Shown here: positions 10,675 to 29,809 of the stretch, in pieces | Layout: each line of letters starts with the position of its first letter | How positions within the stretch are numbered: position 1 is the stretch's first letter | NCBI GenBank assembly: GCA_963728565.1 | Contig: CAVSLC010000005.1 | Span: forward strand, 192,001 to 256,000 | Origin: an uncultured delta proteobacterium | GTDB lineage: Bacteria > Desulfobacterota > Binatia > UBA9968 | Length of the DNA: 64,000 nt | Direction of reading: 5' to 3' | Translations under genes and position numbers: made by a program | The notes under the pieces: generated by a model | The model's database searches: none | Seen by the model: only the letters and a program-made list of their open reading frames with translations | Told to the model about the DNA's origin: nothing

Positions 10675-10703
10675 GCAACCTTTATCGACAAACGAGCATC
10701 TAA
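10675..10703 (+). promoter_or_regulatory. Putative ECF promoter copy 1
   Basis: GCAACC-N16-CATCTAA upstream of 10732. Confidence 0.75.
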
Positions 10704-10731
10704 AACCCAAGCCTGAGATTACATCGGAGGC

Positions 10732-10974
10732 ATGATCATGGAAAAAACCCGAACCCCGTACATACAGTTTCCGCCGAAAAAGAGTCCCATTCAGACTACT
10801 TTTATGGACCTGATCCAGGAACTCAGCCAACTCACCAACGACGACGGCATGGTCGTCGCGGCGGTTAAAAGAGTCTTCAATTCTCATACTGTACGGTTCG
10901 CTCACTCGCTGACGCCCGTGCGCCTGGTCGCCGGAGGGAGAACCTTGAAATCACGCATCCGTGCGCGCCGGTGA
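10732..10974 (+). CDS. Small hypothetical protein between sigma and anti-sigma
   Basis: ggagg RBS; 80-aa ORF directly after the motif promoter. Confidence 0.65.
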   Translation: MIMEKTRTPYIQFPPKKSPIQTTFMDLIQELSQLTNDDGMVVAAVKRVFNSHTVRFAHSLTPVRLVAGGRTLKSRIRARR

Positions 10975-11048
10975 GCTGCCGATTGCCGGCCGGTCACAAT
11001 CGATTGGAGGATTTGCAAATTATTGCCGCTGTCGAGATAAATAGGAGG

Positions 11049-11369
11049 ATGAAACGCCATCGCTCCTCTCCGAGCAGAAAACGTGTCGGCTCGTCAAACA
11101 ACAACAAGACGGGCGAAAGCCGATTTCGGCCGCTGACCTGCGAAAAAGAAACCGCCCTGATCGCCGACTATCTCGCGTCGAATCTCGGCCCCGCAGACCT
11201 CGCGTCGTTCGAAAATCATCTCGAAGAGTGCCCCGATTGCAAGGCGTTTTTGCGGACCTACAAGAAGACTATCGAAATCACCCGCAGCTTCCTCGAGCTT
11301 GAATCTGCCAAAGCGCGCCAGCGCAAACCGGCGCGGCGCGCCGCGAACAGCCGGCAGCGCCGGAACTAA
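11049..11369 (+). CDS. Zinc-binding anti-sigma factor (zf-HC2/ZAS), soluble
   Basis: LTC...IADYL...FENHLEECPDC (HxxxCxxC); ATG 11049 after aggagg. Confidence 0.85.
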   Translation: MKRHRSSPSRKRVGSSNNNKTGESRFRPLTCEKETALIADYLASNLGPADLASFENHLEECPDCKAFLRTYKKTIEITRSFLELESAKARQRKPARRAANSRQRRN

Positions 11370-11378
11370 ATAATCTGT

Positions 11379-11407
11379 GCATCCTTTTTCCATCGACCCT
11401 CATCCAA
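11379..11407 (+). promoter_or_regulatory. Putative ECF promoter copy 2
   Basis: GCATCC-N16-CATCCAA. Confidence 0.7.
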
Positions 11408-11713
11408 ATGTGCACAGGATTCTACTGAACCCGGATTGCGCAGTTGAAGGAGAAGTCATGAGCGAGGAGCAAACCTTCCGCAGCGCAGACAATGCGTTTC
11501 TACCTTTGAGAGGCGACAACTGTCGGTGCCGTGCGTAACGACGTCACGCAAATAGAGGCGGCGAGCCAAGCATCAAAAAGGACTTTGAAACGGAACACTC
11601 CGGTGTCTTCGCTTCTCCAGGCTTGCCCCTCGCTCAATTTTTAACTGCGGAATCCGGGCTGACCCTTCCGGTTCGCTAACATCGACCATTCACCGTTTTC
11701 AAGGAGCTCGTGC

Positions 11714-12826
11714 ATGAAAGCTATAGCCGTTACGCCGAGAAAAAGAACCGTCGAAATTATCAATCAAGCCGAACCGCAGATTTTTTCCCCCACGGATGTC
11801 AAGCTGCGCATGCTGGAGGCCGGAGTCTGTGGCACGGACAGAGAAATCTGCGCCTTCGAATACGGGACCCCGCCTGCCGGTTCCGAGCAGCTGGTGATCG
11901 GCCACGAATCTATCGGCGAGGTGATAGAAACAGGTCCGAAAGTCACCCGCGTCAAAGCAGGAGACCTCGTCGTCCCAATGGTCCGCCGGCCGTGCCCGCA
12001 CGACCATTGCGCGGCCTGCCGCGCCGATCGTCAGGATTTTTGCTTCACCGGAGAATTTCAAGAACGGGGTATTAAAGAAAGGCACGGGTTCATGGCGCAG
12101 TTCGTTGTTGACGACGAAAAGTACATGAATCCCGTTCCGAGGGAAATGCGTGACGTTGCCGTTTTGGTAGAGCCGCTGACGATTGCTGAAAAGGGGCTGA
12201 CTCAAGTATGGCAAATGCAACAGCGCCTGCCTTGGGGCTGCCCGGTCACAACGGCAAAAGCAGCGGCTCATTGCCACCGGGCTGTTGTCCTGGGCGCGGG
12301 ACCGGTGGGATTGCTTGGGGCTATGGCCTTGATCAACTACGATTTTGAAACGTATGTTTATTCGCGAGAGCCCGCTCCGAATCCGAAGTCTCAACTACTC
12401 GAATCGATCGGCGCGCACTATATTTCGTCTGACAACATCGCTCCCGAAATGTTTCCCGAACAGATCGGCAACGTAGATTTAATCTACGAAGCGACGGGAG
12501 CTTCGAGCCTGGCCTTCGAAACGATGAAGTACCTCGGCACCAACGGCATCTTTATTTTTACAGGGGTGCCCGGCAGAAAACGCCCCATTCAAGTCGATAC
12601 CGACCTCATCATGCGCAATCTGGTTCTGAAAAACCAGGTCGTCTTCGGCACGGTCAATGCCGGGCGCGACTCCTTCGAAAACTCGATCCGCGATCTCGGC
12701 ACTTTCACCAAGCGTTGGCCCGAGGCGGTGCAGTCGCTGATCACCGGGCGCTTCCCAATGGAGGCTTACGGCGATCTTCTTCTCGGCCGCTCCGGAGGGA
12801 TCAAGAATGTCATCCGACTCAATTGA
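11714..12826 (+). CDS. Zn-dependent glucose 1-dehydrogenase (MDR family, archaeal-type)
   Basis: GVCGTDREI, GHE, VRRPC...CAACR...DFC, GAGPVG, VFGTVNA. Confidence 0.88.
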   Translation: MKAIAVTPRKRTVEIINQAEPQIFSPTDVKLRMLEAGVCGTDREICAFEYGTPPAGSEQLVIGHESIGEVIETGPKVTRVKAGDLVVPMVRRPCPHDHCAACRADRQDFCFTGEFQERGIKERHGFMAQFVVDDEKYMNPVPREMRDVAVLVEPLTIAEKGLTQVWQMQQRLPWGCPVTTAKAAAHCHRAVVLGAGPVGLLGAMALINYDFETYVYSREPAPNPKSQLLESIGAHYISSDNIAPEMFPEQIGNVDLIYEATGASSLAFETMKYLGTNGIFIFTGVPGRKRPIQVDTDLIMRNLVLKNQVVFGTVNAGRDSFENSIRDLGTFTKRWPEAVQSLITGRFPMEAYGDLLLGRSGGIKNVIRLN

Positions 12827-12947
12827 TCCGACGGATGGTTGTTAGAAGCATGTAGCGGGAACTTCGAAGAGCAGAGTGAGTTCGATATGCACCGTTTCGG
12901 ATGATCCCGACCTGGAACGCTGTGACCTTGAAGTCTACTGAGAGCAC

Positions 12948-13733
12948 ATGACGGACGCCTTGAAACGCCATTGGCCCGAATATCTGATGGAGGCTGCTTG
13001 CCTCGGCCTGTTTATGATCTCGGCCTTCACCTTCGGCGCGATTTTGGAATATCCTGGGTCGGCCGTTCATCAGGCTATTCCCTCCTCACTGCTGCGGCGA
13101 TTCTTGATGGGCATCGCGATGGGATTGACTGCTATCCTCATCATATATTCACCGTGGGGCAAACAATCCGGCGCCCATATCAACCCGTCGACTACCCTGA
13201 CGTTTTTTCGACTCGGCAAGGTCGCCAAATGGGATGCGATCTTCTACATCGTCGCGCAGTTCGGAGGCGGCATAACCGGGGCTCTTCTGGCTTCGGCCGT
13301 TCTGGCTGCATGGGTCTCCCATCCCTCGGTGAATTACGTTGTGACAATGCCGGGGAGCGCCGGCATCGCCGCCGCATTCGTCGCCGAAGTAGCGATTACT
13401 TTCATCCTGATGAGCGTAATTCTCCGTGTTTCAAACAATACCCGACTGCATAAACTCACCGGCTTGTGCGCGGGAGCGTTGGTCGCCGCCTACATAACCC
13501 TCGAAGCGCCGATCTCGGGAATGAGCATGAACCCCGCGCGTACCTTCGCTTCCGCAGTGCCGGCGCAGTATTGGACGTCGCTATGGCTTTACTTCACTGC
13601 TCCTTTGATCGGTATGCTGGCCGCCGCCGAGGTCCACCTACGAAGCCGGAGTCCCCGTGTCGGTTGCGCCAAACTGCACCACGAAAATCCGAAGCGCTGT
13701 ATATTTTGCGGCAAACCCGCCTCTAAAGCATAG
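12948..13733 (+). CDS. MIP/aquaporin with NPS/NPA motifs and Cys/His C-tail
   Basis: SGAHINPS, SMNPAR, six hydrophobic segments, tail CAKLHH...RCIFC. Confidence 0.92.
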   Translation: MTDALKRHWPEYLMEAACLGLFMISAFTFGAILEYPGSAVHQAIPSSLLRRFLMGIAMGLTAILIIYSPWGKQSGAHINPSTTLTFFRLGKVAKWDAIFYIVAQFGGGITGALLASAVLAAWVSHPSVNYVVTMPGSAGIAAAFVAEVAITFILMSVILRVSNNTRLHKLTGLCAGALVAAYITLEAPISGMSMNPARTFASAVPAQYWTSLWLYFTAPLIGMLAAAEVHLRSRSPRVGCAKLHHENPKRCIFCGKPASKA

Positions 13734-13866
13734 CGCTTGATAGCGCCGCGGCGCGGCATCGTTTTCGTTCACGCCGGGCATTCAAGATTAGCCGGGACGA
13801 ACGCTCGCCTGCCCGGAAAGACGGCGTGAAAGTTCAGTTGTGATTTAACCGCAGCGCCGCTCGGAT

Positions 13867-13895
13867 GCACCTTTTCTCGCGCGAAGCGCATCTAA
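13867..13895 (+). promoter_or_regulatory. Putative ECF promoter copy 3
   Basis: GCACCT-N16-CATCTAA upstream of 13935. Confidence 0.75.
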
Positions 13896-13934
13896 GCAGC
13901 ACGTAAAAAGATCCAGATAACCGGAGGGAAATCG

Positions 13935-14432
13935 ATGAAGCTCATTACGGCTGCCCTCGTAACAGTGACGCTACTGGCACTCTCTTCGGCCGGAGCGGAG
14001 CAGACCATTGAGAAAAAAGGGCTGACTCTGGACGGCGCGAAAAAAGTGATTGCGGCCGCGGTCGCCGCGGCTAAGAGCAAGAACGCGCCGGGCGGCGCCA
14101 TCGCCGTGGTCGACGAAGGAGGCAACCTCATCGCCGTCGAGCGGCTCGACAATACTTTTGCCGCCGGCGCCAACATCTCGATCGGCAAGGCGCGAACTGC
14201 AGTCCTGTTCAAGCGGCCGACGAAGTTCTTCGAAGATGTGATCAACAAAGGGCGCACCGCGATGACTAGTCTTAGTGATTTCACGCCGCTGCAGGGCGGC
14301 ATTCCGATCAGCGTCGATGGACAAATCATCGGCGCGGTAGGTGTTAGCGGCGCGGCCAGCGCCCAGCAAGACGAGGAACTCGCCATCGCTGGAGCCGACG
14401 CTTTGGCGACGAGCTCGGCGAAAATGCAATAG
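13935..14432 (+). CDS. Secreted GlcG/HbpS-family heme-binding protein
   Basis: IAVVDEGG, GKARTA, GGIPI...IGAVGVSG; signal peptide. Confidence 0.88.
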   Translation: MKLITAALVTVTLLALSSAGAEQTIEKKGLTLDGAKKVIAAAVAAAKSKNAPGGAIAVVDEGGNLIAVERLDNTFAAGANISIGKARTAVLFKRPTKFFEDVINKGRTAMTSLSDFTPLQGGIPISVDGQIIGAVGVSGAASAQQDEELAIAGADALATSSAKMQ

Positions 14433-14453
14433 ACCGCCAATTCAGGAGACGTC

Positions 14454-15314
14454 ATGAAATTCTTCAAGATTCTTATTGCACTGTCGTTTTTTTTCCTGCC
14501 GGCAACCGGAGCTCAGGCTCAACTGCAAGAGAAAAAAGTTCTAACTCTAGAGGCAGCCGAGAAAGTCGCCGCCGCCGCCGAGGCGGAAGCAAAAAAGAGA
14601 AATGCCACCGTCGTCATTGTCGTGGTGGACGACGGCGGGTATCCGATCGTCCTCAAGCGGCTCAATGACACTCAAGTCGCAAGTGTCGATGTAGGCATCG
14701 GCAAAGCGCGCACCGCGGCCATCTTCCGCCGGCCCAGTAAGGACTTTGAAGATCAGATCACGCAGGGTCGCACAGCGTCGCTCGTTCTTCCCGGGGCCAC
14801 CCCGCTGCAAGGAGGCCTTCCCCTCGTGTTTGATGGCAAGGTCGTTGGCGCGATTGGCGTCAGCGGCAACACGCCGCAGGAGGACGAAGACATAGCCAAC
14901 GCTGGCGCCGCCAGCTTCGAAGCGTCTAATAGAGCCGCCGCCGTATCGATAACCCACCTGCCGGCGAAGCAAGTAAGCCAGGCATTTGTTAAAGGAATGC
15001 CGCTGGTCAGGGGAAAGAATTACAAAGTTGACGCCAGCCACCGCAATGAACCGGGAATCGTGGAAGTTCACACGCGCGATACGGATATTATCTACATGCT
15101 CCAAGGCTCGGCGACTTTGGTAACCGGCGGAACTCTCGTTGATCCGAAAAATATCGAACCTGAAGAGATTCGCGGCCGGGAATCTAAAGAGGGAGAAACT
15201 CGTATGATTACCAAGGGCGACATCGTCGTCATCCCAAACGGCACACCGCACTGGTTCAAGGAAGTCAAAGACCCGATCGATTATTACGTCGTCAAGGTCA
15301 GAGCAGCTGACTAA
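14454..15314 (+). CDS. Secreted GlcG/HbpS-cupin fusion protein
   Basis: GlcG motifs followed by cupin EVH...GDIVVIPNGTPHWF. Confidence 0.85.
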   Translation: MKFFKILIALSFFFLPATGAQAQLQEKKVLTLEAAEKVAAAAEAEAKKRNATVVIVVVDDGGYPIVLKRLNDTQVASVDVGIGKARTAAIFRRPSKDFEDQITQGRTASLVLPGATPLQGGLPLVFDGKVVGAIGVSGNTPQEDEDIANAGAASFEASNRAAAVSITHLPAKQVSQAFVKGMPLVRGKNYKVDASHRNEPGIVEVHTRDTDIIYMLQGSATLVTGGTLVDPKNIEPEEIRGRESKEGETRMITKGDIVVIPNGTPHWFKEVKDPIDYYVVKVRAAD

Positions 15315-15328
15315 TTGAGGATACAAAC

Positions 15329-16988
15329 ATGACAAGGATCTTTCTGATAACCAGTATCGCCGCCCTTTTAGCTCTGCCCACCAAATTTGCCGCCGGAGCG
15401 GCGCCGGACGAATCGCTCGTCGGACGGAAGCCGGAAGCGACGATCGACCTTGCCACTCGACAAGGCGTGGAAACGGTGAAAGCCCAATGGCGCTACAGCG
15501 ACACAGAGATTGTCGAAGTCGATTTCAGATCCGCGGGACCTGACGGACAACCGAGCGGGACGCCAAATAAAGCCTACGACTTCACGCCGCATGCGGGCGG
15601 GGCCGACTTCGACGACTCCAACTGGGAAGTCATAGATTCCACGACTTTGGATCAACGCCGATCCGCTGGCAGACTCGGCTTCAACTGGTACAGGATCAAG
15701 ATCACCGTCCCGCAGCGAATCGGCAGTTTCGATCCAGCCGGCTCGACACTGGTCTTCGCCACGTCCGTCGACGACTATGCCGAAGTCTGGGTGGATGGAG
15801 AGTTGCCGCGCGCTGCCGGTCAGAGCGGCGGGTCAGTCGTCAAAGGCTGGAACGCAGAGAACCGGTTGATCGTCGGCCGTGACGTGAAGGCCGGCCAAAA
15901 GATCCAGCTCGCGATCTTCGGCATCAACGGTCCAATCTCCAATTCACCGACCAACTATATCTATGTGCGCTATGCGAAGCTCGAATTTCACAAAATTCCG
16001 GGCGGGCCTGTTGCGGTGATGCCACAAGAGGTCAACGTGGAAATAACGCCGGCTCGATCCGGCAATCGACGCTATCGTTCCACCCAACCCCAAAATTTTT
16101 AAGCTCGCCGAAGGCTTTCAATTCACCGAAGGACCCGTTTGGTTGCAAAACGGCGATTTTCTCTTCAGCGATCCGAACGCTAATAAAATCTACAAGTATG
16201 CGGCCGACGGAACGCTCTCGGTGTTCAAAGAGAACAGCGGTTACTCCGGCAAAGACATCACTGAATATTTCCAACCGGGCTCCAATGGGCTGACGCTCGA
16301 CCCGGATGGGAGACTGACGATCAATGAGCATGGTAACAGGCGGATCGTGCGGGTGGAAAAAGATGGAAAGCTAACGGTCCTCGCCGATCGCTTCGAAGGC
16401 AAGCGACTCAACAGTCCCAATGATCTCGTCTATCGCTCGGACGGAACGCTCTTCTTTAGCGATCCGCCTTTCGGCTTGCCGAAATTTTACGACGACGCGG
16501 CCAAGGAACTTCCCTACAGCGGCGTGTTCGCCCTCTATAAAGGCCAACTCAAGCTGGTGACAAGCGATCTGAAAGGGCCCAATGGAATCGCCTTTTCACC
16601 GGATGAAAAGTATCTCTATGTCGGCAACTGGGATCCGGAAAAAAAGATCGTAATGCGTTACGAAGTCAATCCCGACGCAACGCTGTCCAATGGAAAAGTC
16701 TTCTTCGACATGACCAGCTCGCCGGGACAAGACGCGATCGACGGCATCAAGGTCGATCAGCAAGGGAACCTCTACGTCTCCGGGCCCGGCGGGTTGTGGA
16801 TTCTTTCGCCGGCGGGCAAACACCTCGGGACAATTAAGGCACCGAAGCATCCGCACAACCTTGCGTGGGGTGGGGAAGACGGAAAAACCCTGTACTTGAC
16901 GGCACAGAGCACGCTTTACCGGATGCCGCTCAATATTCCCGGCATCCGTCCGGCGGATGTAATGAACAAACTCGCCGCGCAGCGTTAG
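15329..16988 (+). CDS. Secreted SMP-30/gluconolactonase with N-terminal beta-sandwich domain (frameshift near 16045)
   Basis: ORFs 15329..16102 and 16143..16988 join via RLDPAIDAIVP...FQFTEGPVW; GSNGL, NSPND, PNGIAFSPD, DGIKVD. Confidence 0.85.
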
Positions 16989-17141
16989 GTGAAAGAAATA
17001 GAAACGCCCAAAGAAACGGGAAGAATGGCAATCGCGACCTTAAATTCACTGGGCTCAGAGCAGAATATGCACCGGATCAAATGCGACTCGTTGCGAGTCC
17101 GAAGACGGCAGAAAATACAATTAGGAGAAAAGGGACAATTT

Positions 17142-17715
17142 ATGAGAGAGAGCACACCCTTAAACATCCCCGTCATATTGGGAACCACGCGCAAGGGCCG
17201 CATGAGTGAGCACGCCGCCCGCTTCATGGCGGGGCAGATCGAAAAGCGCAACGGGGTCAGAACCGAACTGATCGATATTTCCAAGCTTCCAATGCCCATC
17301 GATGATGCCGGGGAGGACATCAAAGATCCGGCGTTTTCAGAAAAGATGACGATGGCTGATGCGCTGGTGATCGTGACTCCGGAATACAATCACAGCTTTC
17401 CCGGACTTGCTCAAGCATGTTCTGGACAGCTGCCTGAAAGAATACATCCACAAGGCTGCCGGGATCGTCGGCGTGTCGGCCGGTCCTTTTGGCGGCGTAC
17501 GGGCAATCCAAGACTTTCTGCCGGTGATTCGTGAGCTGGGCCTGGTGAATATTTTCTGGGACGTCAATTTCGGCAACGTAAGCAAGGTCTTCGACGAATC
17601 CGGCAAGCTGCTCGACGAAGCCTTTGTTGCGCGCGCCGACAAGTTTTTGAACGAATTGGTTTGGATGGCGAAAACCTTGCGCTACGGGCGCGACAATATT
17701 GCTCTGGATAGCTGA
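17142..17715 (+). CDS. NADPH-dependent FMN reductase (frameshift near 17405)
   Basis: ILGTTRKGRMS...VTPEYNHSFPG + LKHVLD...SAGPFGGVRA. Confidence 0.85.
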
Positions 17716-17727
17716 CGGGAGGACGAC

Positions 17728-17916
17728 ATGGCGAAACAAAAGAGTGTGATGATTTGTTCGAATTGTGGCAGCGAGATGAATCATCACGCGGATAAGTTAA
17801 TCGATCCGGTGAAGCCGGAAGATCTGCGGCAGGTAAATTCCCAGCTCGGCGGCGTCATCGAAGAAATACACTGCTGTCCCGGATGCGGCGCCGCGGCTTC
17901 GCTTAGGGCAGAATGA
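17728..17916 (+). CDS. Small zinc-ribbon protein
   Basis: CSNCG...MNHHA...HCCPGCG; ggagg RBS. Confidence 0.7.
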   Translation: MAKQKSVMICSNCGSEMNHHADKLIDPVKPEDLRQVNSQLGGVIEEIHCCPGCGAAASLRAE

Positions 17917-17932
17917 GGGAGGGTGAGATTCC

Positions 17933-18616
17933 ATGAGCTTCGATACGACGAGCTTTGAAATCGGTAAAAACCGAATTGAGGCGCTCAGCGATGGCATATT
18001 TGCCATCGTCATGACCCTTCTTATCCTCGAGTTTCACGTCCCAAATCTGCCGTCCAACGCGCCCAATGTCGAGGTTGCGCCGGCGCTGGTTGCTTTGTTG
18101 CCCAAGTTCGCAAGCTACATCGTCACCTTTGTCAGCCTGGGATTCTTCTGGGTCGGTCATCATATCATGTACCATGCCATCCGGCGCGCCGACCGGACGC
18201 TTCTCTGGCTCAACATCTTCTTTTTCATGTTCGTTTCCATGCTCCCGTTCTCGACCAGCGTGCTGAATGCCTTTTCAGAAGCTTTCATCGCGCCGCTCTT
18301 CTTCGGAACCAACCTCGCGATTATCGGTTGGATGTTGTTCTTTCAATGGCGCTATGCAAGCTCGCAACCGGAGATGCTGGCTGCTTTTGTCAGTGCCGAA
18401 TACCGCAATTCGGTACGATCCCGCATGTTGATAGTCCCGGTGGCGACAACGCTGACCGTGTTCATCTGTTTTTGGAGCGTGGGGATTAGCCTGGCGATCT
18501 ATCTCTTGCTTCTTCCTCTGTACATGCTTCCCGGAAAATTAACGGGGCGGCTAAAACTGCTCAAGATTTCAGGCCCGCTTCGTAGAGCGGATTGTTCCTG
18601 CTCAGGAGGAAACTAG
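17933..18616 (+). CDS. TMEM175-family (DUF1211) potassium channel
   Basis: RIEALSDGIFAIVMTLL, FWVGHH, WLN...LPFST. Confidence 0.9.
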   Translation: MSFDTTSFEIGKNRIEALSDGIFAIVMTLLILEFHVPNLPSNAPNVEVAPALVALLPKFASYIVTFVSLGFFWVGHHIMYHAIRRADRTLLWLNIFFFMFVSMLPFSTSVLNAFSEAFIAPLFFGTNLAIIGWMLFFQWRYASSQPEMLAAFVSAEYRNSVRSRMLIVPVATTLTVFICFWSVGISLAIYLLLLPLYMLPGKLTGRLKLLKISGPLRRADCSCSGGN

Positions 18617-18665
18617 TTCCGGCGCTTTCGGGTGAGAGTTCAAAATCATTCTACGGAGGATAGCG

Positions 18666-20991: not shown

Positions 20992-20994
20992 AGT

Positions 20995-21294: not shown

Positions 21295-21351
21295 GCGGGA
21301 ATTATCTCATAAAACGCGAGAGAAAAGCACGTTGGCAGCAGTCGCGATCAA

Positions 21352-21409
21352 TCCTAACGTGGCGCTCAGGCGGCGCTCTTAACGATCGGTCTGAAGCGCT
21401 TAGTTATGT
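21352..21409 (-). mobile_element. Integron attC site 2
   Basis: Minus strand ACATAAC...cttcagaccgatcgttaagagcgccgcctgagcg...GTTAGGA; the DUF2442 stop lies in the inverse core site. Confidence 0.85.
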
Positions 21410-21721
21410 GGTGGATTCCGTCAGGCTGTGCTTCGCGGAGCCCCATTTCGTTGCTAAAGCCGTGAGCGCAGGTCCTGATTCGGGCCAGTTATGTAGAATC
21501 GCTGGGTCAAAATCTGCACCATTTGGCCAAACAAGCGTGTGAATCTCTGGATCAATACGAACCTGATCAAAAAGTGTGGGCTCTTGCAGAGGACCGTATA
21601 GTTCCCCCTTCAGGACAGGACGGAAATCAATAATTTGAGACGTGCCATCGTCAAACTGCACCCGCAGGGTGAACGGCGCTACTTTCTGGAACGAGGAAAC
21701 CCGATAAATCTCATGACCCAT
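21404..21721 (-). CDS. DUF2442 protein (partner of DUF4160 in a TA-like pair)
   Basis: LRVQFDDG...LFDQVRID...TLVWPNGADFDP. Confidence 0.88.
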   Translation of the reverse strand: MGHEIYRVSSFQKVAPFTLRVQFDDGTSQIIDFRPVLKGELYGPLQEPTLFDQVRIDPEIHTLVWPNGADFDPAILHNWPESGPALTALATKWGSAKHSLTESTT

Positions 21722-21734
21722 ATGGTAGACCCTC

Positions 21735-22004
21735 TCACTTTAACGGTTCAATCTTAATGGGCGGACGACCCTGTTGCAACGTCTGCCAGTTCGACAATAA
21801 CTCTTCCTGATGAAGCTCTGCCCAGGCCAGAACGAGACGCTCCTGCCGTCTCGGAAGGGAACCAGCCAAACGCTCGATCTTGCCGATATCATAGATTCCC
21901 ACATGGTCCTGATAATACGCGTGGAAGTGAGGCATATGATGCTGTCCTCCTGCCTCGACGAACATGCGAATGATAATGCCGAAGAATCTAGAAACCTCTG
22001 GCAT
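21735..22004 (-). CDS. DUF4160 protein (HicA-like TA component)
   Basis: MPEVSRFFGIIIRMF...HMPHFHA...WAELHQEELLSNW. Confidence 0.9.
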   Translation of the reverse strand: MPEVSRFFGIIIRMFVEAGGQHHMPHFHAYYQDHVGIYDIGKIERLAGSLPRRQERLVLAWAELHQEELLSNWQTLQQGRPPIKIEPLK

Positions 22005-22025
22005 TACTTATCCAGTTCATAGACC

Positions 22026-22084
22026 ACATAACGTGAGCGCTCAGCCGGCGCTTTTAGCGACCGGTCTGAAGCGACGGGTTAGGA
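22026..22084 (-). mobile_element. Integron attC site 1
   Basis: Minus strand TCCTAAC...cttcagaccggtcgctaaaagcgccggctgagcg...GTTATGT; similar to attC 2. Confidence 0.85.
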
Positions 22085-22105
22085 GGCTTTCAGAGCCAAC
22101 ATGAA

Positions 22106-22530
22106 TTACGATCCCGGAACTCGCGATGAGTGGTGATCAACGATTAACCATTTTCCGTTACGATTTCGGTAAACAAATGTGAAACGGGCAGGGTTCGCAA
22201 AAGTATAGTAGCCGGTGTTTATGGCCACATCACCATATACCCGAATATGCTGTTCGCCGAGAGTAACTCTCGCTTTTCGGTTTTTGCCGGCATCCTTCGA
22301 AATACTCAGCAACTGCAGCCGGATTTGCAGCGATAGTTTTCGCCGACGTTCCCCAAAACACTGCTTCGGGGTCATACAGCGAGGTGATACGCGCAGGATC
22401 ACGGCGATCATACGCCCAACCCACGCGGAAGTCGCCTCGGCCACTGTTGCGCAGTGTCAGTGCGATCCGCAGTTATAGTCCCACATGCCGCAACCAAAGC
22501 GACAAGAAAAAGCGTAATCAGATTTCGCAT
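22106..22530 (-). pseudogene. SnoaL/NTF2-like (DUF4440-type) lipoprotein cassette, frameshifted
   Basis: Lipobox LVAAC; pieces RITSLYDPEAVFWGT...EYF and RVYGDVAINTGYYTF...ARFTFVY...WLIVDHHSS are in different frames. Confidence 0.7.
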
Positions 22531-22543
22531 ACTGTTAATAATC

Positions 22544-22680
22544 CTCTAACCATTGAGTATACTGACCAGTATATTACCGACTCCGAAAATCATAGCGCAG
22601 CAAAATTGAGCTTTTCAATCACGCCGTTATCAACTGTTTTCTAGTAACGGTCATTCAATATACCAGGTCAGTATATTACG
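22544..22680 (-). mobile_element. Candidate attI and Pc promoter
   Basis: Core GTTAGAG at 22550-22544; TTGAAA-N18-TATGAT (22618-22589); two related TAATATACTG boxes. Confidence 0.55.
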
Positions 22681-22714
22681 AATATACCTGCATAGACCGC
22701 CCTTGCTCACAATG

Positions 22715-23038
22715 CGTCTGCAGGACTCCGAACTCCCTTCCACCTCGATTTAACACGTGCGTGTAAACCATAGGGTAGCACATCATTGTGGCCCAAAAGT
22801 TCCTGGAAGTCCGAATGTCGTATCCATTCTCTAGCAAGTGCGTAGCAAATGAATGGCGCAAACTGTGCGGACCGGCGGGCTTGAACACGCCGGCTTTAAG
22901 CCGAGCTTCTTTAAACGCCCGTTGCAAAACGGTCTCATGGAGATGATGCCGGCGGTTTTCTCCTGTCGATCTGTCAAGTAATGACTTGTGGCGGGGAACA
23001 CCCGCTGCCATCCCCATTCTTGGCCGGCGTTCGGAATT
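22715..23038 (-). pseudogene. intI: Integron integrase C-terminal remnant
   Basis: IntI-specific [10 protein letters not shown]...[12 protein letters not shown]; [34 protein letters not shown]; 5'-truncated with several frameshifts. Confidence 0.88.
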
Positions 23039-23179
23039 TGTGGTCGAGGGCCATTCGGTAAAGATACTCCGCCTGATCCTTTTGCATCACCGTTAAAGCG
23101 GTTGAACTCCAGCAGCCAAGCTGTTTCTCACCGCGAGAGAGTATCCCGCTCTAAACACGATTCAGGGTTTGCGAAGTCT

Positions 23180-23208
23180 GCATCGTTTCACTCCTTGGCG
23201 ACATCTAA
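23180..23208 (+). promoter_or_regulatory. Putative ECF promoter copy 5
   Basis: GCATCG-N16-CATCTAA upstream of 23261. Confidence 0.75.
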
Positions 23209-23260
23209 CCCACAGAATTTCCCCAGTCATAGTCACAAACAAAATTAACGGAGGATTATC

Positions 23261-23767
23261 ATGAGTAAACGTAATCTTATTATCGGGGTCGCTGGCGTCG
23301 CACTGGCAATCGCTTGGTACGCGTTCCGGCCCGAGTTGCTCTTCATCAACAAAACCGTCAACGAGGAGCTGCCGGTTGCTCAGGCAGGCTCAGTATCGAT
23401 GGCCAAAGAAACAGAGACCATGGTTTTGGCGAAGGGCGATTTTCGCGGGCTGGCGCACGAGACCAAAGGCGAAGCGACGGTTCATCGATTGGCGGACGGC
23501 AAGCGCATACTGCGGCTGAGCGATTTTGAGACTTCCAACGGTCCGGATGTCCATGTCTATCTGGTTGCCGCCGAAGTGGCCAAGGACAATGCGACTGTCA
23601 AGCAAGCCGGCTTCATCGATTTGGGTTCACTCAAAGGCAACAAGGGCGATCAGAACTATGATGTGCCGGCGGATGCCGATCTCAACAAGTACAAGTCGGT
23701 GAGCATCTGGTGCGCGCGTTTCGGGGTTAACTTTGGCGCCGCTACTCTTGGTTCACAGAGCAGCTAG
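23261..23767 (+). CDS. DM13-domain protein, membrane anchored
   Basis: HETKG...NGPDVHVYL...LGSLKGNKGDQNY...VSIWCARF. Confidence 0.92.
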   Translation: MSKRNLIIGVAGVALAIAWYAFRPELLFINKTVNEELPVAQAGSVSMAKETETMVLAKGDFRGLAHETKGEATVHRLADGKRILRLSDFETSNGPDVHVYLVAAEVAKDNATVKQAGFIDLGSLKGNKGDQNYDVPADADLNKYKSVSIWCARFGVNFGAATLGSQSS

Positions 23768-23842
23768 AGGACCGCTATTCCTTGTCGGCTGCTTTCCCTG
23801 CGGGGGAAGCAGCCGGTTTGAGAAAGTACGAAAGGATTCGAG

Positions 23843-25156
23843 ATGGCCAGGGGCAGAAAACAGATTGTGATCCTCGGCGGCGGCTTCGGCGGTCTCTACA
23901 CCGCCCGAGAACTGGAAAAAAAGCTCGGCGCGGATCCGGATGTCGAGATAACGCTGGTGAACCGCGACAATTTCTTTCTCTTTACTCCGATGTTGCATGA
24001 AGTAGCCGCCAGCGACCTCGACCCTGCCGACATCCTGAATCCGATCCGCAAGCTTTTGAAGCAATCTCGTTTCTTCGTCGGCAATGTCGAGGCGATCGAC
24101 CTCGACTCCAAGAAAGTCAAAGTCTCTCATGGAGAGGGCCAACATCCGCATGAGCTGGCGTACGATCAACTGGTGATCGCGCTGGGCTCGGTCAGCAATT
24201 TCTTCACTCTCCCTGGAGTTGAAGAGCGCGCGCTGCCCATGAAGTCACTCAATGATGCAGTGACCTTGCGCAGCCGGCTTATCGAGCAGTTGGACGAAGC
24301 CGATTTTGAATGTTGTCCGGCGATGCGAGCTTCGTTGATGACCATCGTTGTAGCCGGCGGCGGTTTTGCCGGCGTTGAGACGGTTGCGGCAGTAAATGAT
24401 TTTTTACGCGAAGCCTTGAAGTATTACCCGAACCTCAGCGAAGAAATGATTCGCGTCGTGCTGGTTGAACACGGGCCTGCGGTCTTGCCGGAGCTCGACG
24501 GCAGCTTGGGTGCATATGCGGCGGAGAAGCTTTCCCGGCGCGGAGTTGAGATACGGCTTCAAACCGCCGTGACTTCCATGTCGGAGCGCGCTGTAACCCT
24601 GAGCGACGGCACGTCTATCCACACCCGGACTCTCGTCTGGACGGCGGGCACTGCGCCGAATCCTTTGCTGGCGGCGCTTGCCTGCTCAAAGGAGAAGGGC
24701 AAGTTGATCGTCGACGAGAATCTTGAAATTCCCGGCCGGCCGGGCGTCTGGGCGCTGGGCGACTGCGCCGCGATTCGCGATCGCCAGTCCGGCAGGCTTT
24801 ATCCGCCGACAGCGCAGCACGCCTTGCGCCAGGGAAAAGTTGTCGCACACAATGTCATCGCCGCGATTCGTGGGACGGCAAAACAACCCTTCGTTTTCTC
24901 CACCATCGGCCAACTCGCTGCCATCGGCAGGCGAACCGGTGTCGCCAACATCTTGGGTGTCAACTTCTCCGGCTTCATCGCCTGGTGGATGTGGCGAACC
25001 ATTTACCTGAGCAAGCTGCCGCGCCTTGAGAAGAAAGTGCGAGTGGCGCTGGGCTGGTCACTCGATCTGTTTTTTTCGAAGGATCTCGTACAGCTCAAAA
25101 CCAACGACGCGACGGTTTGCCGCGGCGCTGCGGTTAAACAACAATCCGCTGCCTGA
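23843..25156 (+). CDS. Type II NADH dehydrogenase-like flavoprotein
   Basis: GGGFGG, FTPMLHEVA, GGGFAGVE, WALGDCA, PTAQHA. Confidence 0.9.
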   Translation: MARGRKQIVILGGGFGGLYTARELEKKLGADPDVEITLVNRDNFFLFTPMLHEVAASDLDPADILNPIRKLLKQSRFFVGNVEAIDLDSKKVKVSHGEGQHPHELAYDQLVIALGSVSNFFTLPGVEERALPMKSLNDAVTLRSRLIEQLDEADFECCPAMRASLMTIVVAGGGFAGVETVAAVNDFLREALKYYPNLSEEMIRVVLVEHGPAVLPELDGSLGAYAAEKLSRRGVEIRLQTAVTSMSERAVTLSDGTSIHTRTLVWTAGTAPNPLLAALACSKEKGKLIVDENLEIPGRPGVWALGDCAAIRDRQSGRLYPPTAQHALRQGKVVAHNVIAAIRGTAKQPFVFSTIGQLAAIGRRTGVANILGVNFSGFIAWWMWRTIYLSKLPRLEKKVRVALGWSLDLFFSKDLVQLKTNDATVCRGAAVKQQSAA

Positions 25157-25171
25157 GAAAGGAATAAGAAT

Positions 25172-26743
25172 ATGCCCAGCCAAGACCATTACGATGTTGT
25201 CATTATCGGCACCGGCGCAGGCGGCGGCACGCTGGCGCATAAACTCGCGCCCAGCGGCAAGCGCATTCTGCTCCTGGAACGGGGCGGGTATGTGCCGCGC
25301 GAGAAAGACAACTGGAATCCGCGCGCCGTCAACCTCGAAGGAAAATATCAGACCAAAGAGATGTGGCATGACAAAGACGGCCACGAACTTCATCCGCACA
25401 CCAACTATTACGTCGGCGGCAACACCAAATTCTACGGCGCGGCGCTGTTCCGCCTGCGCAAAGAAGATTTTGGTGAAATCCGCCATCACGGCGGCCTCTC
25501 TCCGGCATGGCCCATTGTTTACGATGACATGGAGCCCTACTACACCGAGGCGGAACAGCTTTATCACGTACACGGCAACCGCGGCGAAGATCCGGCCGAG
25601 CCGCCTGCGAGTGCGCCTTATCCGCATCCGGCGGTCAGCCATGAATCGCGCATTCAACAATTATCCGATGATTTCGCGCAGCTCGGCCTGCGCCCGTTTC
25701 ACACGCCACTTGGCGTGATGCTCGACGAAAAGGATTCGCATGCGAGCCGCTGCATTCGCTGCAATAGCTGTGACGGATTTCCTTGCCTGGTTGGTGCCAA
25801 ATCCGACGCGCAGATTTGCGCCGTCGATCCGGCGCTCCAACATGCCAACGTGACTCTCAGAACCGACGCTTACGTCGAACGGCTCCAAACCAGCCCGTCG
25901 GGCCGCGAGATCAGCAAGGTAATGATCAAGAGCAACGGCGTTCGCGAGGAAATTTCGGCAGATATCGTGGTCTCGTCTTGCGGCGCGATCAACTCGGCGG
26001 CTTTGCTGCTCCGTTCCGCCAATGAGCGGCATCCGAACGGGCTAGCCAATGGTTCCGACGTCGTCGGCCGCCATTACATGGGGCACGTCAACTCGGTCCT
26101 GATGGCTCTATCGAAATGTCCCAACCCGACGATTTTTCAAAAATCGCTTTCGGTGAATGATTTCTATTTCGGCACGGCCGGCTGGAATTACCCGATGGGC
26201 CATATTTCGTTTGTCGGCAAGCTCGATGGCGAGACTCTGAAGGGGGGCGCGCCGGCGCTCACGCCCGGCTGGACTCTTGACATGATGGCGCGCCATTCGC
26301 TCGACTTTTGGCTCACGTCGGAGGATCTGCCCGATCCGGACAATCGGGTCACCGTCGATTCCTCCGGCGGTATTGTTCTCAGTTATAAACCTAACAACGA
26401 AGAAGGTCACAAGCGGCTCATCGTCAAGCTGAAGGAACTCATGCAACAGCAGACCGCGTGCAAGATCCATGGCCGCGAATGCCATCAGGGACTGTTCGGC
26501 CGCAACCTCTACGTCGGTCAGCGCATTCCCCTGGCAGGTGTGGCGCATCAGGTAGGAACGGTTCGCTTCGGCAACGATCCAAGAACCAGCGCGCTGGACG
26601 CCAATTGCAAAGCGCACGATGTCGATAATCTTTATGTCGTCGACGGCAGCTTTTTCTGCTCGAGCGGCGCGGTGAATCCGGCTCTCACCATCATGGCCAA
26701 TGCCCTGAGAGTGGGGGAGCATCTGATTGAAAGGATGAAGTAG
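25172..26743 (+). CDS. GMC-family oxidoreductase
   Basis: GTGAGG, VGGNTKFYG, C-x2-C-x2-C, HQVGT, NPALT. Confidence 0.92.
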   Translation: MPSQDHYDVVIIGTGAGGGTLAHKLAPSGKRILLLERGGYVPREKDNWNPRAVNLEGKYQTKEMWHDKDGHELHPHTNYYVGGNTKFYGAALFRLRKEDFGEIRHHGGLSPAWPIVYDDMEPYYTEAEQLYHVHGNRGEDPAEPPASAPYPHPAVSHESRIQQLSDDFAQLGLRPFHTPLGVMLDEKDSHASRCIRCNSCDGFPCLVGAKSDAQICAVDPALQHANVTLRTDAYVERLQTSPSGREISKVMIKSNGVREEISADIVVSSCGAINSAALLLRSANERHPNGLANGSDVVGRHYMGHVNSVLMALSKCPNPTIFQKSLSVNDFYFGTAGWNYPMGHISFVGKLDGETLKGGAPALTPGWTLDMMARHSLDFWLTSEDLPDPDNRVTVDSSGGIVLSYKPNNEEGHKRLIVKLKELMQQQTACKIHGRECHQGLFGRNLYVGQRIPLAGVAHQVGTVRFGNDPRTSALDANCKAHDVDNLYVVDGSFFCSSGAVNPALTIMANALRVGEHLIERMK

Positions 26744-26754
26744 GACACAGCAAA

Positions 26755-27795
26755 ATGGAAAAACTGCTGCGGCGAAAGAAAACATGCGATCGAGCGCTCG
26801 TGTTCATGGCCTTCTTGGTGCTCGGGCTTTACGGATCTTTGGCGCCGGCATCGGCGCAGCTCGTCAAGTCGGTCGACGCGGCGGGAATCACCGTCTCCGA
26901 CATTGACCGGTCGGTAGAATTTTTTTCCAAAGTGCTCTCGTTTGAAAAAGTCTCGGACGTCGAAGTCGCAGGCAGCGAGTACGAGCGGCTTCAGGGAGTT
27001 TTCGGCGCACGGATGAGGATTGCGCGCATGAGGCTCGGCGAAGAATTCATCGATCTCACCGAATATCTCACACCCAGAGGCCGGCCGATCCCGGTGGACT
27101 CGCGCAGCAACGATCAATGGTTCCAGCACATCGCAATCGTCGTAAGCGACATGGACAAAGCCTATCAACAGTTGCGCGCGCATAAAGTGCGGCATACCTC
27201 TACCGGTCCGCAGCGGATTCCCGACTGGAACAAGGCCGCGGCCGGAATCAAGGCTTTTTACTTCAAGGATCCCGACGGTCACAATCTCGAGTTGATTTAC
27301 TTTCCATCCGGCAAAGGCAATCCAAAATGGCAGCAAGCAAACGGGCGTCTTTTTATGGGTATCGACCATACCGCAATTGCAGTCTCGGATACGGCCCGGA
27401 GCTTAGATTTTTACCGCGATGTTCTGGGTCTGAAGCTTGCCGGTGAAAGCGAAAACTACGGCACCGAGCAGGAGCATCTAAACCACGTCTTCGGATCACG
27501 GGTGCGTATCAGCGGACTCAAAGCGCCGTCCGGTTTCGGCATCGAGTTCCTCGACTACTTGACGCCGCGCGATGGCCGGCCGATGCCGCCCGACACGCGC
27601 GCCAATGACCTCTGGCATTGGCAGACAGCAATAAGGGTGGGCCGCGCCGACGCGGCCGCCGACAAGTTAAAAAGCGCGCGGGTGCGCTTTGTCTCCCCCG
27701 GCGTGACGACACTCCCGGACCGAGCCCTGGGCATCGCCAAAGGATTTATCGTGCGTGATCCTGATGGCCACGGGCTTCAGTTGATCGAGAGATAA
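26755..27795 (+). CDS. Secreted tandem VOC/glyoxalase-domain protein
   Basis: Repeated VOC motifs (QHIAIVV, DPDGHNLEL, DHTAIAV, DPDGHGLQL); signal peptide. Confidence 0.85.
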   Translation: MEKLLRRKKTCDRALVFMAFLVLGLYGSLAPASAQLVKSVDAAGITVSDIDRSVEFFSKVLSFEKVSDVEVAGSEYERLQGVFGARMRIARMRLGEEFIDLTEYLTPRGRPIPVDSRSNDQWFQHIAIVVSDMDKAYQQLRAHKVRHTSTGPQRIPDWNKAAAGIKAFYFKDPDGHNLELIYFPSGKGNPKWQQANGRLFMGIDHTAIAVSDTARSLDFYRDVLGLKLAGESENYGTEQEHLNHVFGSRVRISGLKAPSGFGIEFLDYLTPRDGRPMPPDTRANDLWHWQTAIRVGRADAAADKLKSARVRFVSPGVTTLPDRALGIAKGFIVRDPDGHGLQLIER

Positions 27796-27810
27796 TCCGG
27801 CAGAGAGTTT

Positions 27811-29809
27811 ATGATGAACGATCTGGTCAAGATGAAAGACGACGAATGGCTCGAAACCGACGGGCTTGGCGGCTTCGCCTCCGGCACTGTGGCCGGCATC
27901 AGAACGCGGCGCTACCACGCGCTTCTCCTCACCGCAACCAACCCGCCCTCGGGCCGAGTCGTTCTCATCAACGGCTTCGATGCCTCGGTGGAAACGGCAG
28001 GCGGATGTTTTTCACTCTCCTCCCAGTTATATAACCCGGACGTGGTGCACCCGGACGGCGCCGCAAGAATAGAGCAATTCAAAGCCGATCCCTGGCCGCG
28101 GTGGATCTACCGGTTGGAAGACGGGAGCAAGATTCAGTTTGAGATTTTCGCCTGCAACGGCGCTTCCGTGACGGTGCTCGTGTGGCGTCTGCTTGCGGCA
28201 ACGAAGAAAGCCATTCTTTCATTGCGGCTTTTTTTCTCCGGACGGGACTATCATTCCATGCATCGCGAGAACGGCGCTTTTCACTTTGAGCCTCAGCTAC
28301 AGGGAAAACGCCTCATCTGGCATCCCTACTCGGGCCTGCCGGGAATCATCGCTCTTGCCAACGGCGAATATCACCACCAGCCCGCCTGGTACCGTAATTT
28401 TCTCTACGAACAGGAACGTGCACGCGGGCTCGATTTTATCGAGGATCTCGCCGCGCCTGGATTGTTCCGTTACGATCTCGCGCGCGCACAGGCGGTCTGC
28501 ATCCTTGCTGCCGAGGGATTTGAAAATGAGTTGCTGGTGCCGGACGATTCCGCGGAAGAACTGGCGGCGGATCTGCGTGGGTCAGAGCTTCGCCGCCGGC
28601 AAAAATTTTCTTTACCTCTGGAACGCTCCGCGGACGCTTACCTGGTCAAGCGCGGCGGCGGCAAAACAATTGTCGCGGGCTACCCTTGGTTCACCGATTG
28701 GGGCCGCGATACGTTCATAGCGCTTCGTGGCTTGTGCCTTGCCAACCAGCGATTCGATGAGGCCCGCGATATTCTTTTTGAATGGGCCGGCGTGGTCTCC
28801 GAAGGGATGCTGCCAAATCGATTCCCCGATCGGAGCGATCAACCTGAGTACAACTCAGTCGACGCCTCTCTCTGGTACATCATCGCAGTCCACGATTTTC
28901 TCGACGCGATGAAGACGCGCGGCGCCAACGTCTCCGATTCGGATAGAAACGCGCTGCGCCAAGCGGTCGAAGCTATCCTTGCCGGCTACTCGCAGGGCAC
29001 GCGCTTTGGAATTCACATGGATCAGGATGGTCTTCTCGCCGCCGGTGTCCCCGGTGTGCAGCTTACCTGGATGGACTCGAAGATCGGCGACTGGGTAGTC
29101 ACGCCACGAATTGGAAAACCCGTCGAGATCCAGGCGCTGTGGTTAAACGCCCTGTGGATCGGCAGCCAATTCTCGGAGAGCTGGAAGGAATTCTTTATCC
29201 GGGGTCAAAAAAGTTTCTCTACCCGCTTCTGGAACGAACGGGGCGGTTATCTCTACGACGTCATCGACGTCGATCATCAACCCGGCAAAGTCGATGCGCT
29301 GTTCCGGCCGAACCAGATTTTCGCCATCGGCGGGCTGCCGATTTCGCTCATCACAGGAGAACGCGCCGAAACAATTCTTGAGGCCGTGATTCAACGGCTA
29401 TGGACTCCGCTCGGTCTTCGATCTCTCGCCCCCGGAGAGCCCGGCTACGCGTCGCGGTACGAAGGCGGCGTGCGAGATGCGCGACAGCGTTTACCATCAA
29501 GGCACGGTATGGCCCTGGCTCCTCGGTCCGTTTGTCGAGGCCTGGGTGCGCGTTCATGGCGAGAGCGACGACGCTAAGCGCGAAGCTCGAACGCGCTTCC
29601 TGGTGCCGATAATGGAGCACCTAAACAGCGCGGGCCTCGATCATGTCTCCGAAATCACCGACGCCGATGCGCCGCACATACCGCGCGGGTGCCCATTTCA
29701 AGCTTGGTCTGTGGCGGAGCTGATTCGCCTGGACCGGCTGGTTCTGAGACTCGCTGAAAAACAAGAAATCTCCGCATCCTCTCGGGCTCGAGCGGCATCT
29801 AACAGGTAG
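27811..29809 (+). CDS. Amylo-alpha-1,6-glucosidase (glycogen debranching; frameshift near 29477)
   Basis: [34 protein letters not shown] + [10 protein letters not shown]...GCPFQAWS. Confidence 0.9.
29774..29802 (+). promoter_or_regulatory. Putative ECF promoter copy 6
   Basis: GCATCC-N16-CATCTAA in the 3' end of the debranching gene, upstream of 29913. Confidence 0.75.

Follow-up and report, generated by a model that had tools for sequence, protein, structure and literature searches.

Six near-identical two-box sequence elements lie in front of successive gene units in a stretch of DNA from an uncultured Candidatus Binatia bacterium, and the question raised by this locus is whether they are promoters of one extracytoplasmic function (ECF) sigma factor encoded beside them. 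The stretch (hereafter the window) spans 64 kb, C5:192001-256000 of the assembly G000 (4,529,011 bases in 28 contigs, 80.55% complete). An earlier, sequence-only reading had described the elements as strict bipartite ECF promoters with exactly 16 nucleotides (nt) between the boxes, had regarded them as a complete local regulon, and had proposed the adjacent ECF factor as their reader. Our analysis leads to the view that the elements, here called P1-P6, are probably RpoE/SigW-like ECF promoters with -35 and -10 boxes, read by the ECF factor encoded at 9886-10647 within a three-tier circuit that runs from sigma-54 through the ECF factor to its targets. The sigma gene and the six elements are listed below with window positions; bit scores are those of the weight matrix described in the next section.

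9886-10647, plus strand: ECF sigma factor (Pfam Sigma70_r2 2.9e-16, Sigma70_r4_2 2.6e-14, Sigma70_ECF 1.7e-5)
10675-10703, plus strand: P1, GCAACC-N16-CATCTAA, 30.5 bits, preceding the hyp80 and anti-sigma genes
11379-11407, plus strand: P2, GCATCC-N16-CATCCAA, 28.0 bits, preceding the glucose dehydrogenase and aquaporin genes
13867-13895, plus strand: P3, GCACCT-N16-CATCTAA, 26.6 bits
19732-19760, plus strand: P4, GCATCC-N16-CATCTAA, 26.5 bits
23180-23208, plus strand: P5, GCATCG-N16-CATCTAA, 27.7 bits
29774-29802, plus strand: P6, GCATCC-N16-CATCTAA, 27.5 bits

A rigid box pair concentrated in one cluster

The pattern GCAHCB-N16-CATCYAA is matched six times in the window, at the positions listed above and always on the plus strand, exactly as the sequence-only reading had quoted boxes and spacing. 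Chance accounts for a mean of 0.01 matches, with a largest count of 1 in 100 dinucleotide-preserving shuffles of the window. As the pattern was derived from the six sites themselves, three checks independent of those sites were made. Of the 11 matches in the whole assembly (both strands), 6 fall in the window. Changing the spacer to 13, 14, 15, 17, 18 or 19 nt leaves 3, 1, 3, 0, 5 and 0 matches assembly-wide. A weight matrix trained on 69 non-redundant sites from the loci of other genomes, with the window excluded, places the six window sites (26.5-30.5 bits) together with C11:97065(-) (26.5 bits) as the best seven in the assembly; there are 70 hits of at least 12 bits, and after the top seven the scores drop to 22.4, 21.2 and 21.0. 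Spaced word pairs were also enumerated blindly in the 2,325 nt of plus-strand intergenic DNA within 9395-29912, and the top pairs all belonged to the box motif (TGCA-19-CATC, GCAT-18-CATC and CATC-17-CATC, four times each; GCATC-17-CATCT, three times). The same counting over all DNA of the cluster and window was uninformative, with GC-rich words dominating, and it was the restriction to intergenic DNA that worked.

The consensus of the box pairs is approximately GCAWCY-TTT-N13-CATCTAA. Its T tract, already noted as usual after the -35 box in the sequence-only reading, is borne out by T at the next two positions in 55 and 50 of 75 non-redundant sites; in the same set G stands directly before the second box in 40, and the seventh base after it is A in 41. 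To judge from this base pattern, the probable start of transcription is some 7 nt downstream of the second box. The distances from second box to start codon are 28, 306, 39, 68, 52 and 110 nt for P1 to P6, the value of 306 nt before the glucose dehydrogenase gene being inflated because a 234-nt repeat element has been inserted at 11430-11663. No sigma-70-like promoter was found before the units; 8 such promoters were found in 9300-29200, against 9.9 expected.

The boxes recur before orthologous genes

We compared the window with 28 related loci (382,643 nt in total) from Candidatus Binatia metagenome-assembled genomes (MAGs) of soil and groundwater. Sites with at most two mismatches to GCATCC-N16-CATCTAA number 76 on the strand of the ECF gene and 3 on the opposite strand, while the same- and opposite-strand counts at spacers of 14, 15, 17 and 18 nt are 0/0, 6/1, 9/1 and 2/4. 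In a gene-anchored footprint, where the best site was taken from the 250 nt upstream of orthologous genes and the motif was not used as an anchor, sites with at most three mismatches stand before 14 of 16 hyp80 genes, 16 of 22 glucose dehydrogenase (GDH) genes, 14 of 19 genes for the MIP channel and 8 of 10 GlcG1 genes (all 8 with at most two mismatches). The reverse strand of those regions gave 0/16, 0/22, 0/19 and 1/10, respectively, and for operon-internal genes the best upstream match mostly has 4-6 mismatches. The GDH region of the window itself scored 5 mismatches because the inserted repeat puts P2 beyond 250 nt.

The remaining promoters follow suit. Twelve aligned upstream regions of GlcG1 (P3) orthologs have nothing conserved but the two boxes. 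Sites were found upstream of DM13 orthologs (P5) in 5 of 6 further loci and of spondin-like orthologs (P4) in two further loci, L039 and L045, and the GH63 ortholog (P6) in L039 has a one-mismatch site. Synteny from the activator gene to the lactonases is kept in related loci; in G024 the gene order is shuffled, with MIP beside ECF and GDH beside the glycogen debranching enzyme, yet the units have retained their sites. A particular arrangement is seen at the MIP gene: in 12 of 19 loci (e.g. L044:12655, L046:5470 and L062:13042) its start codon follows the second box at 6-7 nt, so that the box pair ends 6 nt before the ATG (5 nt in one). This fits a leaderless MIP mRNA in those relatives, which would start at the A after the box. 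The MIP promoter of the window has decayed (12889-12947): the first box, GCACCGTTT at 12889, is kept and the second is lost.

The sigma gene does not carry its own motif

The ECF factor reaches 102.1 bits against TIGR02937 (cut-off 42.9) and consists of sigma2 and sigma4 domains only. Together with a nearby anti-sigma gene and a rigid bipartite promoter, the latter defined in silico, these domains are what is looked for in a group 4 (ECF) sigma factor. Its closest solved structures by sequence are SigW (1e-21), the sigma-H entry 6in7 (2.7e-21) and RpoE (3.6e-18); all NCBIfam equivalog models stay under their cut-offs, the best being PRK11922 with 152 against 204 bits. Among 23 orthologs regions 2.4 and 4.2 are almost invariant, as expected if promoter specificity is conserved. 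There are two candidate starts, ATG 9886 or ATG 9931, and about 55 N-terminal residues are poorly conserved. The idea that this N-terminus is untranslated, prompted by in-frame stops in relatives, proved wrong, the stop in G004 being C-terminal. We also noted that the linker between sigma2 and sigma4 (10330-10460, residues ~150-185) is long and strongly conserved (LPKFQxDGHHxVRPVVDWSD), in a segment that normally varies.

The motif is absent from the sigma gene itself. The best match has 4-6 mismatches before the STAS-fold gene that opens the sigma operon (24 loci) and 3-6 before the ECF gene (14 loci), and the reverse-strand control does as well; this implies that there is no positive autoregulation. 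ECF genes often, though not always, have their own promoter in front of them. This absence was one of four features missed in the sequence-only reading, the others being a sigma-54 promoter, the STAS-fold gene and an inserted block at 20.6-23.0 kb.

A sigma-54-type element precedes the sigma operon

Upstream of the ECF gene lie the following features:

7004-9394, minus strand: sigma-54 enhancer-binding protein with PAS, two GAF, AAA+ Sigma54_activat (Pfam, 3.2e-74) and HTH_8 domains
9455-9487, no strand: inverted repeat CGCGACATTTCGCAA-GCA-TTGCGAAATGTCGCG, a candidate upstream activator site of the enhancer-binding protein
9554-9569, plus strand: sigma-54-type -24/-12 element TGGCATCACCTGTGCT, 51 nt before the STAS start
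9605-9874, plus strand: 89-residue (89-aa) STAS-fold protein, SpoIIAA/RsbV-like, first gene of the sigma operon

Sigma-54 promoters have GG and GC doublets 10 nt apart (TGGCAC-N5-TTGC). Each of the 26 loci for which upstream sequence exists has a GG-N10-GC element with both doublets at 28-56 nt upstream of the STAS start, where 0.02 would be expected per 400 nt in G000. In the mapped related loci an ortholog of the enhancer-binding protein is encoded divergently upstream of the STAS-ECF pair. Repeats similar to that at 9455-9487, with half-sites TTCGCRA / TYGCGAA, lie ~65-100 nt upstream of the -24/-12 element, and the half-site pattern is found in 24 of 25 loci. The locus thus has the doublets, the enhancer-binding protein and the upstream repeat that go with a sigma-54-dependent promoter, and we infer that in the first tier the divergent PAS-GAF enhancer-binding protein would activate this promoter to transcribe the STAS-fold gene and the ECF gene, the ECF factor not driving its own gene.

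The 89-aa gene precedes the sigma gene in every locus. Its product scores below the Pfam STAS gathering threshold (16.0 against 22.6 bits, E 0.011). A profile of the protein matches STAS proteins among PDB sequences with E 0.004-0.2, TM1442 having E 0.0037. Its AlphaFold2 model (predicted local distance difference test, pLDDT, 87.6) has SpoIIAA, TM1442 and RsbV as best Foldseek matches, with template modelling (TM) scores of 0.74-0.79 and E-values of 1.6e-5 to 2.2e-4. On the strength of this model, the protein is predicted to have a STAS fold. In our own reading of the alignment, the position that we take to be the usual phosphorylated serine reads N-E-E or N-D-E. No kinase-type anti-sigma factor or PP2C phosphatase was found among the genes of the locus.

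Which factor reads the boxes

Orthologs of the ECF factor (49-92% identity) are present in 12 of 40 relatives. For the test of co-occurrence of motif and sigma factor in 41 genomes the pattern was tightened by the T tract: all 13 genomes with an ECF ortholog have it (40 sites), as do 4 of the 28 that lack one (8 sites), and none of the 16 genomes of the two other families has it. A reversed-pattern control gave 2 sites across the 41 genomes. These counts include the unpublished G018 (with an ortholog, 4 sites) and G012 (without, 2 sites); leaving both aside, the figures are 12 of 12 against 3 of 27. Of five relatives without an ECF ortholog that were searched for the dehydrogenase ortholog, four yielded none.

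The adjacent ECF factor is, in silico, by far the best candidate reader of the boxes. That they are ECF promoters read by it, as the sequence-only reading had proposed, is supported at the level of strand, position, co-occurrence and sigma conservation; the act of reading itself is something we infer. The alternative with most in its favour keeps the boxes as ECF-type promoters but assigns their reading to some other sigma factor encoded elsewhere, in place of the adjacent one or in addition to it. The four genomes with strict sites and no ECF or STAS ortholog found would fit this, as would the site before the dehydrogenase ortholog in one of them, G002. G000 at first look offers 13 sigma-like candidates, 4 of them at E 1e-20 or better, and the -35 AAC / -10 TCTAA style resembles RpoE/AlgU-type promoters. 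Such a reader would leave the motif in 13/13 ortholog-bearing genomes to be explained, as well as the clustering of sites a few kb downstream of the ortholog on its own strand (76 vs 3). The remaining ECF factors of G000 are at most 34% identical to this one, no strong site lies near the paralog locus of G005 (L022, L023, L060; 63% identity), and the four exceptions are draft MAGs of 210-640 contigs. We therefore hold a different or additional reader to be improbable.

It is less probable still, and in our view very unlikely, that the bipartite motif is no promoter and serves instead to bind a regulator, for instance the neighbouring enhancer-binding protein or a repressor. Conservation of an upstream motif would by itself fit a promoter or an operator, and an enhancer-binding protein with a helix-turn-helix domain is encoded next door. 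An operator is hard to reconcile with a motif that lacks dyad symmetry, is strictly directional (again 76 vs 3) and keeps a rigid 16-nt spacing. The box lies from 6 to ~110 nt before start codons; in the 12 loci where just 6 nt separate it from the MIP ATG there is no space for a separate promoter, and the six sites of the window have no sigma-70-like or sigma-54-like promoter accompanying them. Furthermore, the likely site of the activator is a different, palindromic sequence, found solely before the STAS gene. That the repeats are copies of a mobile or duplicated segment, or chance, with no regulatory meaning can practically be dismissed: G000 does contain small mobile repeats, such as the 234-nt element between P2 and its gene, but P1-P6 share two short boxes alone with wholly different flanks and spacers, their chance expectation is 0.01, and they occupy orthologous positions across genomes whose ECF orthologs are 49-92% identical.

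Several points nonetheless weigh against the adjacent ECF factor as reader within a sigma-54-ECF-target circuit. First, G002, G007, G012 and G021 hold 1-3 strict sites and no ECF or STAS ortholog was found in them; in G002, which is 96% complete, the site before the dehydrogenase ortholog lies next to an anti-sigma gene on a 2.6-kb contig, so that either the sigma gene is unassembled or the motif is readable by another sigma factor. Second, the compared genomes are kin, and the counts overstate their independence. Third, the box positions of the sequence logo served to select the sites, and the flanking positions are the only independent ones. Fourth, rpoN (PF04552), the sigma-54 gene, was not found in the 80.55%-complete G000 assembly; it occurs once each in 24 of 24 relatives (including the unpublished G012). 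Fifth, the RNA data are metatranscriptome contigs of related strains (four runs from two studies; 5-15% of sampled words; strains 92-99% alike), which cannot show starts, strand or level. They cover most cluster genes; contigs beginning at 23240 and 19807 miss the predicted starts, and we conclude nothing from which parts are covered. Lastly, the physiological signal proposed below is a guess from gene families.

The anti-sigma factor and a possible feedback

Two genes follow P1:

10732-10974, plus strand: hyp80, an 80-aa conserved protein (18-member alignment; no Pfam or NCBIfam hit)
10971-11369, plus strand: soluble zinc-binding anti-sigma (ZAS) factor, ZAS type (Pfam zf-HC2 6.7e-8)

The anti-sigma gene lies 324 nt downstream of the sigma gene. 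Its product has the ZAS motif C-x25-H-x3-C-x2-C, with C57, H83, C87 and C90 invariant in 21 anti-sigma sequences, and no hydrophobic segment was found in it (maximum 19-residue hydropathy 0.85). For hyp80, atlas look-alikes are hypothetical proteins, most often from Binatota, and the AlphaFold2 model is a small and uncertain one of two helices (pLDDT 70.6). Most relatives have two ZAS genes, one directly after the sigma gene and one after hyp80 behind an ECF-type promoter; in the genus of the window only the hyp80-linked gene is found, with no copy directly after the sigma gene. In most related loci we also observed a small Cys-rich open reading frame (ORF), Zn-ribbon-like by our reading, behind a further ECF-type box pair; it is absent from the genus of the window. 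An example of the second ZAS gene with this ORF is L043:10775-11059 and 11277-11462.

The position of the anti-sigma gene behind the first ECF-type promoter implies negative feedback. In the second tier of the proposed circuit the ECF factor would fire P1-P6 and, beyond the locus, at least one or two further promoters, and P1 would yield hyp80 and the soluble zinc-binding anti-sigma factor; an anti-sigma factor driven by the ECF factor itself would exert negative feedback and thereby produce a self-limiting pulse. A more far-reaching scheme can be imagined, in which a non-phosphorylatable STAS protein, perhaps with hyp80, acts on the ZAS anti-sigma factors as a kinase-free partner switch, within a Binatia-specific three-tier pulse by which glucose stores or compatible solutes are mobilised, and channels for water and K+ opened, when cells meet rewetting or oxidative shock. 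We regard this scheme as speculative and rather unlikely; if true, a kinase-free partner switch of this kind would be one not described for ECF factors.

Putative target units and distal sites

The units behind P2-P6 are given below. The downstream genes that the sequence-only reading had named from translations alone agree with their Pfam families.

11714-12826, plus strand: Unit 2, Zn-dependent glucose dehydrogenase-type enzyme (Pfam Glu_dehyd_C 1.7e-46)
12948-13733, plus strand: Unit 2, MIP aquaporin/glycerol channel (Pfam MIP 1.4e-32)
13935-19691, plus strand: Unit 3 (Pfam; synteny kept in related loci), two GlcG/HbpS-like proteins (the second fused to a cupin), a secreted protein of unknown function, two SMP30/gluconolactonase-like proteins, FMN reductase and a TMEM175-type K+ channel
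19829-20563, plus strand: Unit 4, secreted Spondin_N-like protein (Pfam Spond_N 9.4e-6; start behind GGAGG)
23261-29577, plus strand: Unit 5, DM13, NDH-2, GMC oxidoreductase, two-domain VOC/glyoxalase and archaeal-type glycogen debranching enzyme (Pfam; TIGR01561 8e-104)
29913-32564, plus strand: Unit 6, GH63 / mannosylglycerate-hydrolase-like glycosidase (Pfam MGH1-like_GH 7.1e-24, Glyco_hydro_63 9.8e-6)

A terminator-like hairpin lies downstream of the MIP gene at 13745-13757. Within Unit 3, two ORFs overlap near 17400-17715, where the frame of the FMN reductase gene may be broken, and a small ORF at 17729-17917, between the FMN reductase and TMEM175 genes, has two CxxC pairs and is zinc-ribbon-like.

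The distal sites alter the extent of the regulon. C11:97065(-) precedes the gene of a small secreted protein and is kept in G004 and G005, of the same genus. A conserved site also lies before msrP on contig C25 (C25:71477); in relatives the msrP site is ~5 kb upstream of the sigma gene, often before a thioredoxin-like gene. The sequence-only reading had called the local regulon complete. The six local sites stand, and with conserved sites on C11 and C25 and an assembly that is 80.55% complete, the regulon is neither wholly local nor shown to be complete. Other assembly matches fared less well. We rejected C9:14179, which is the antisense of a conserved ABC-ATPase coding motif recurring in nearly all relatives, C8:17238, an antisense position inside an ORF, and C28:112657, which falls within open frames. 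C11:223603, a 22.4-bit match without T tract at a contig end just before a KaiB-like frame, may be due to chance.

The thioredoxin/TlpA-like gene deserves a separate remark. It lies behind a conserved GCAACC-N16-CATCTAA site in L047 (5030-5575) and also in L051, L053, L056, L063 and L067. Several Binatia loci show an in-frame TGA within it, exactly where the codon for the first Cys of CxxC would stand (FWTYG-TGA-INC; L058 reads CINC), and by this reading of the codons the protein of these loci is a selenoprotein candidate. The gene is decayed in G000, with msrP alone remaining behind the site.

In the third tier, the targets would serve glucose release and oxidation (debranching enzyme, GH63 glycosidase, glucose dehydrogenase and lactonases), water and K+ transport through the two channels, and redox or repair functions through enzymes that are mostly exported (GlcG-like, DM13, NDH-2, GMC, FMN reductase and VOC, with MsrP distally). 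We postulate, with low confidence because the basis is family names only, that the regulon could be a stress programme of a soil bacterium, osmotic (drying-rewetting) and/or oxidative.

Relation to known systems

The sigma factor, anti-sigma factor and bipartite promoter make up a standard RpoE/SigW-like ECF module, a known kind of gene control and not surprising in principle. Like RpoE, AlgU and SigW systems, the locus has a two-domain sigma factor, a zf-HC2 anti-sigma gene and a bipartite promoter. The box pair is reminiscent of GGAACTT-N16-TCAAA/TCTGA; here the first box has A(A/T)C followed by T's, the spacer is a rigid 16 nt and the second box ends in TCTAA. Unlike those systems, the locus has no motif before the sigma gene and its anti-sigma factor is soluble, not membrane-spanning. 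The genus of the window also appears to differ in transcribing the anti-sigma gene from an ECF promoter, apart from the sigma gene.

In Pseudomonas syringae, HrpR and HrpS are the activators of hrpL, and HrpL, which governs type III secretion genes, is not known to have a cognate anti-sigma factor. The likeness to this HrpR/HrpS-sigma-54-HrpL system is in circuit design only: an ECF factor made from a sigma-54 promoter, as is proposed here, acts on operons via one bipartite box. In contrast, the present locus has metabolic, channel and redox genes as its putative targets, includes a STAS protein and one or two ZAS anti-sigma factors besides, and has a single, divergently encoded PAS-GAF activator. 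Transcription of hrpL is described as sigma-54-dependent (PMC5263251).

SigR-RsrA is alike in its short cytoplasmic ZAS anti-sigma factor (here with invariant C-x25-H-x3-C-x2-C ligands) and in redox or repair targets (here FMN reductase, NDH-2 and VOC; distally MsrP and, in relatives, the thioredoxin-like protein). It is unlike the present system in that most relatives here have two ZAS paralogs, and in that the sigma gene is predicted to be under sigma-54 control and not autoregulated. With the SpoIIAA/RsbV antagonists the 89-aa protein would share its fold (TM 0.74-0.79 for the model), whereas it stays under the Pfam STAS cut-off and its locus is without a kinase-type anti-sigma factor or PP2C phosphatase. 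It is the predicted combination of a sigma-54-controlled ECF factor, an ECF-induced anti-sigma factor and a kinase-less STAS gene that is unusual; each element has precedents. The main text of the 2021 ECF re-classification mentions neither STAS nor sigma54, and its supplements could list this group (PMC7826278).

Binatia are widespread uncultured soil and sediment bacteria, and we found nothing in print on their gene regulation: titles and abstract openings yielded no literature on sigma factors of Binatia or Binatota, and, among the matches listed, none giving a CATCTAA second box with an ECF promoter. The locus offers a testable regulatory unit of one sigma factor, a sharp promoter with almost no off-target matches in the genome, an anti-sigma factor and about 20 targets, and these genes point to how Binatia cope with stress. 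The sigma-promoter pair is testable in E. coli without culturing the organism and could serve as an orthogonal expression switch, and its wiring is of interest to the field of ECF signalling.

Insertions within the cluster

Two inserted segments interrupt the cluster:

11430-11663, no strand: 234-nt repeat element resembling a miniature inverted-repeat transposable element (MITE), in the leader of the dehydrogenase gene, downstream of P2
20580-23017, minus strand: inserted block, outside the regulon (Pfam BrnT_toxin 6.2e-26, DUF4160, DUF2442 and a Phage_integrase fragment)

The 234-nt element has six further near-full-length copies (83-98% identity) on C25, C23, C12, C14 and C13, and contigs from 3 RNA runs, which stem from relatives, skip it; it is probably a MITE. 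The second segment, a block of small addiction-type (toxin-antitoxin) genes, separates the spondin unit from the DM13 unit; beyond 20508 the RNA contigs of relatives no longer follow the window. Encoded in the block are a BrnT toxin, next to which lies a small ORF without Pfam match, a DUF4160/DUF2442 pair and a C-terminal tyrosine-recombinase fragment, and its appearance is that of a degraded integron or mobile cassette array. A SnoaL-like fragment can also be read from an ORF translation within the block.

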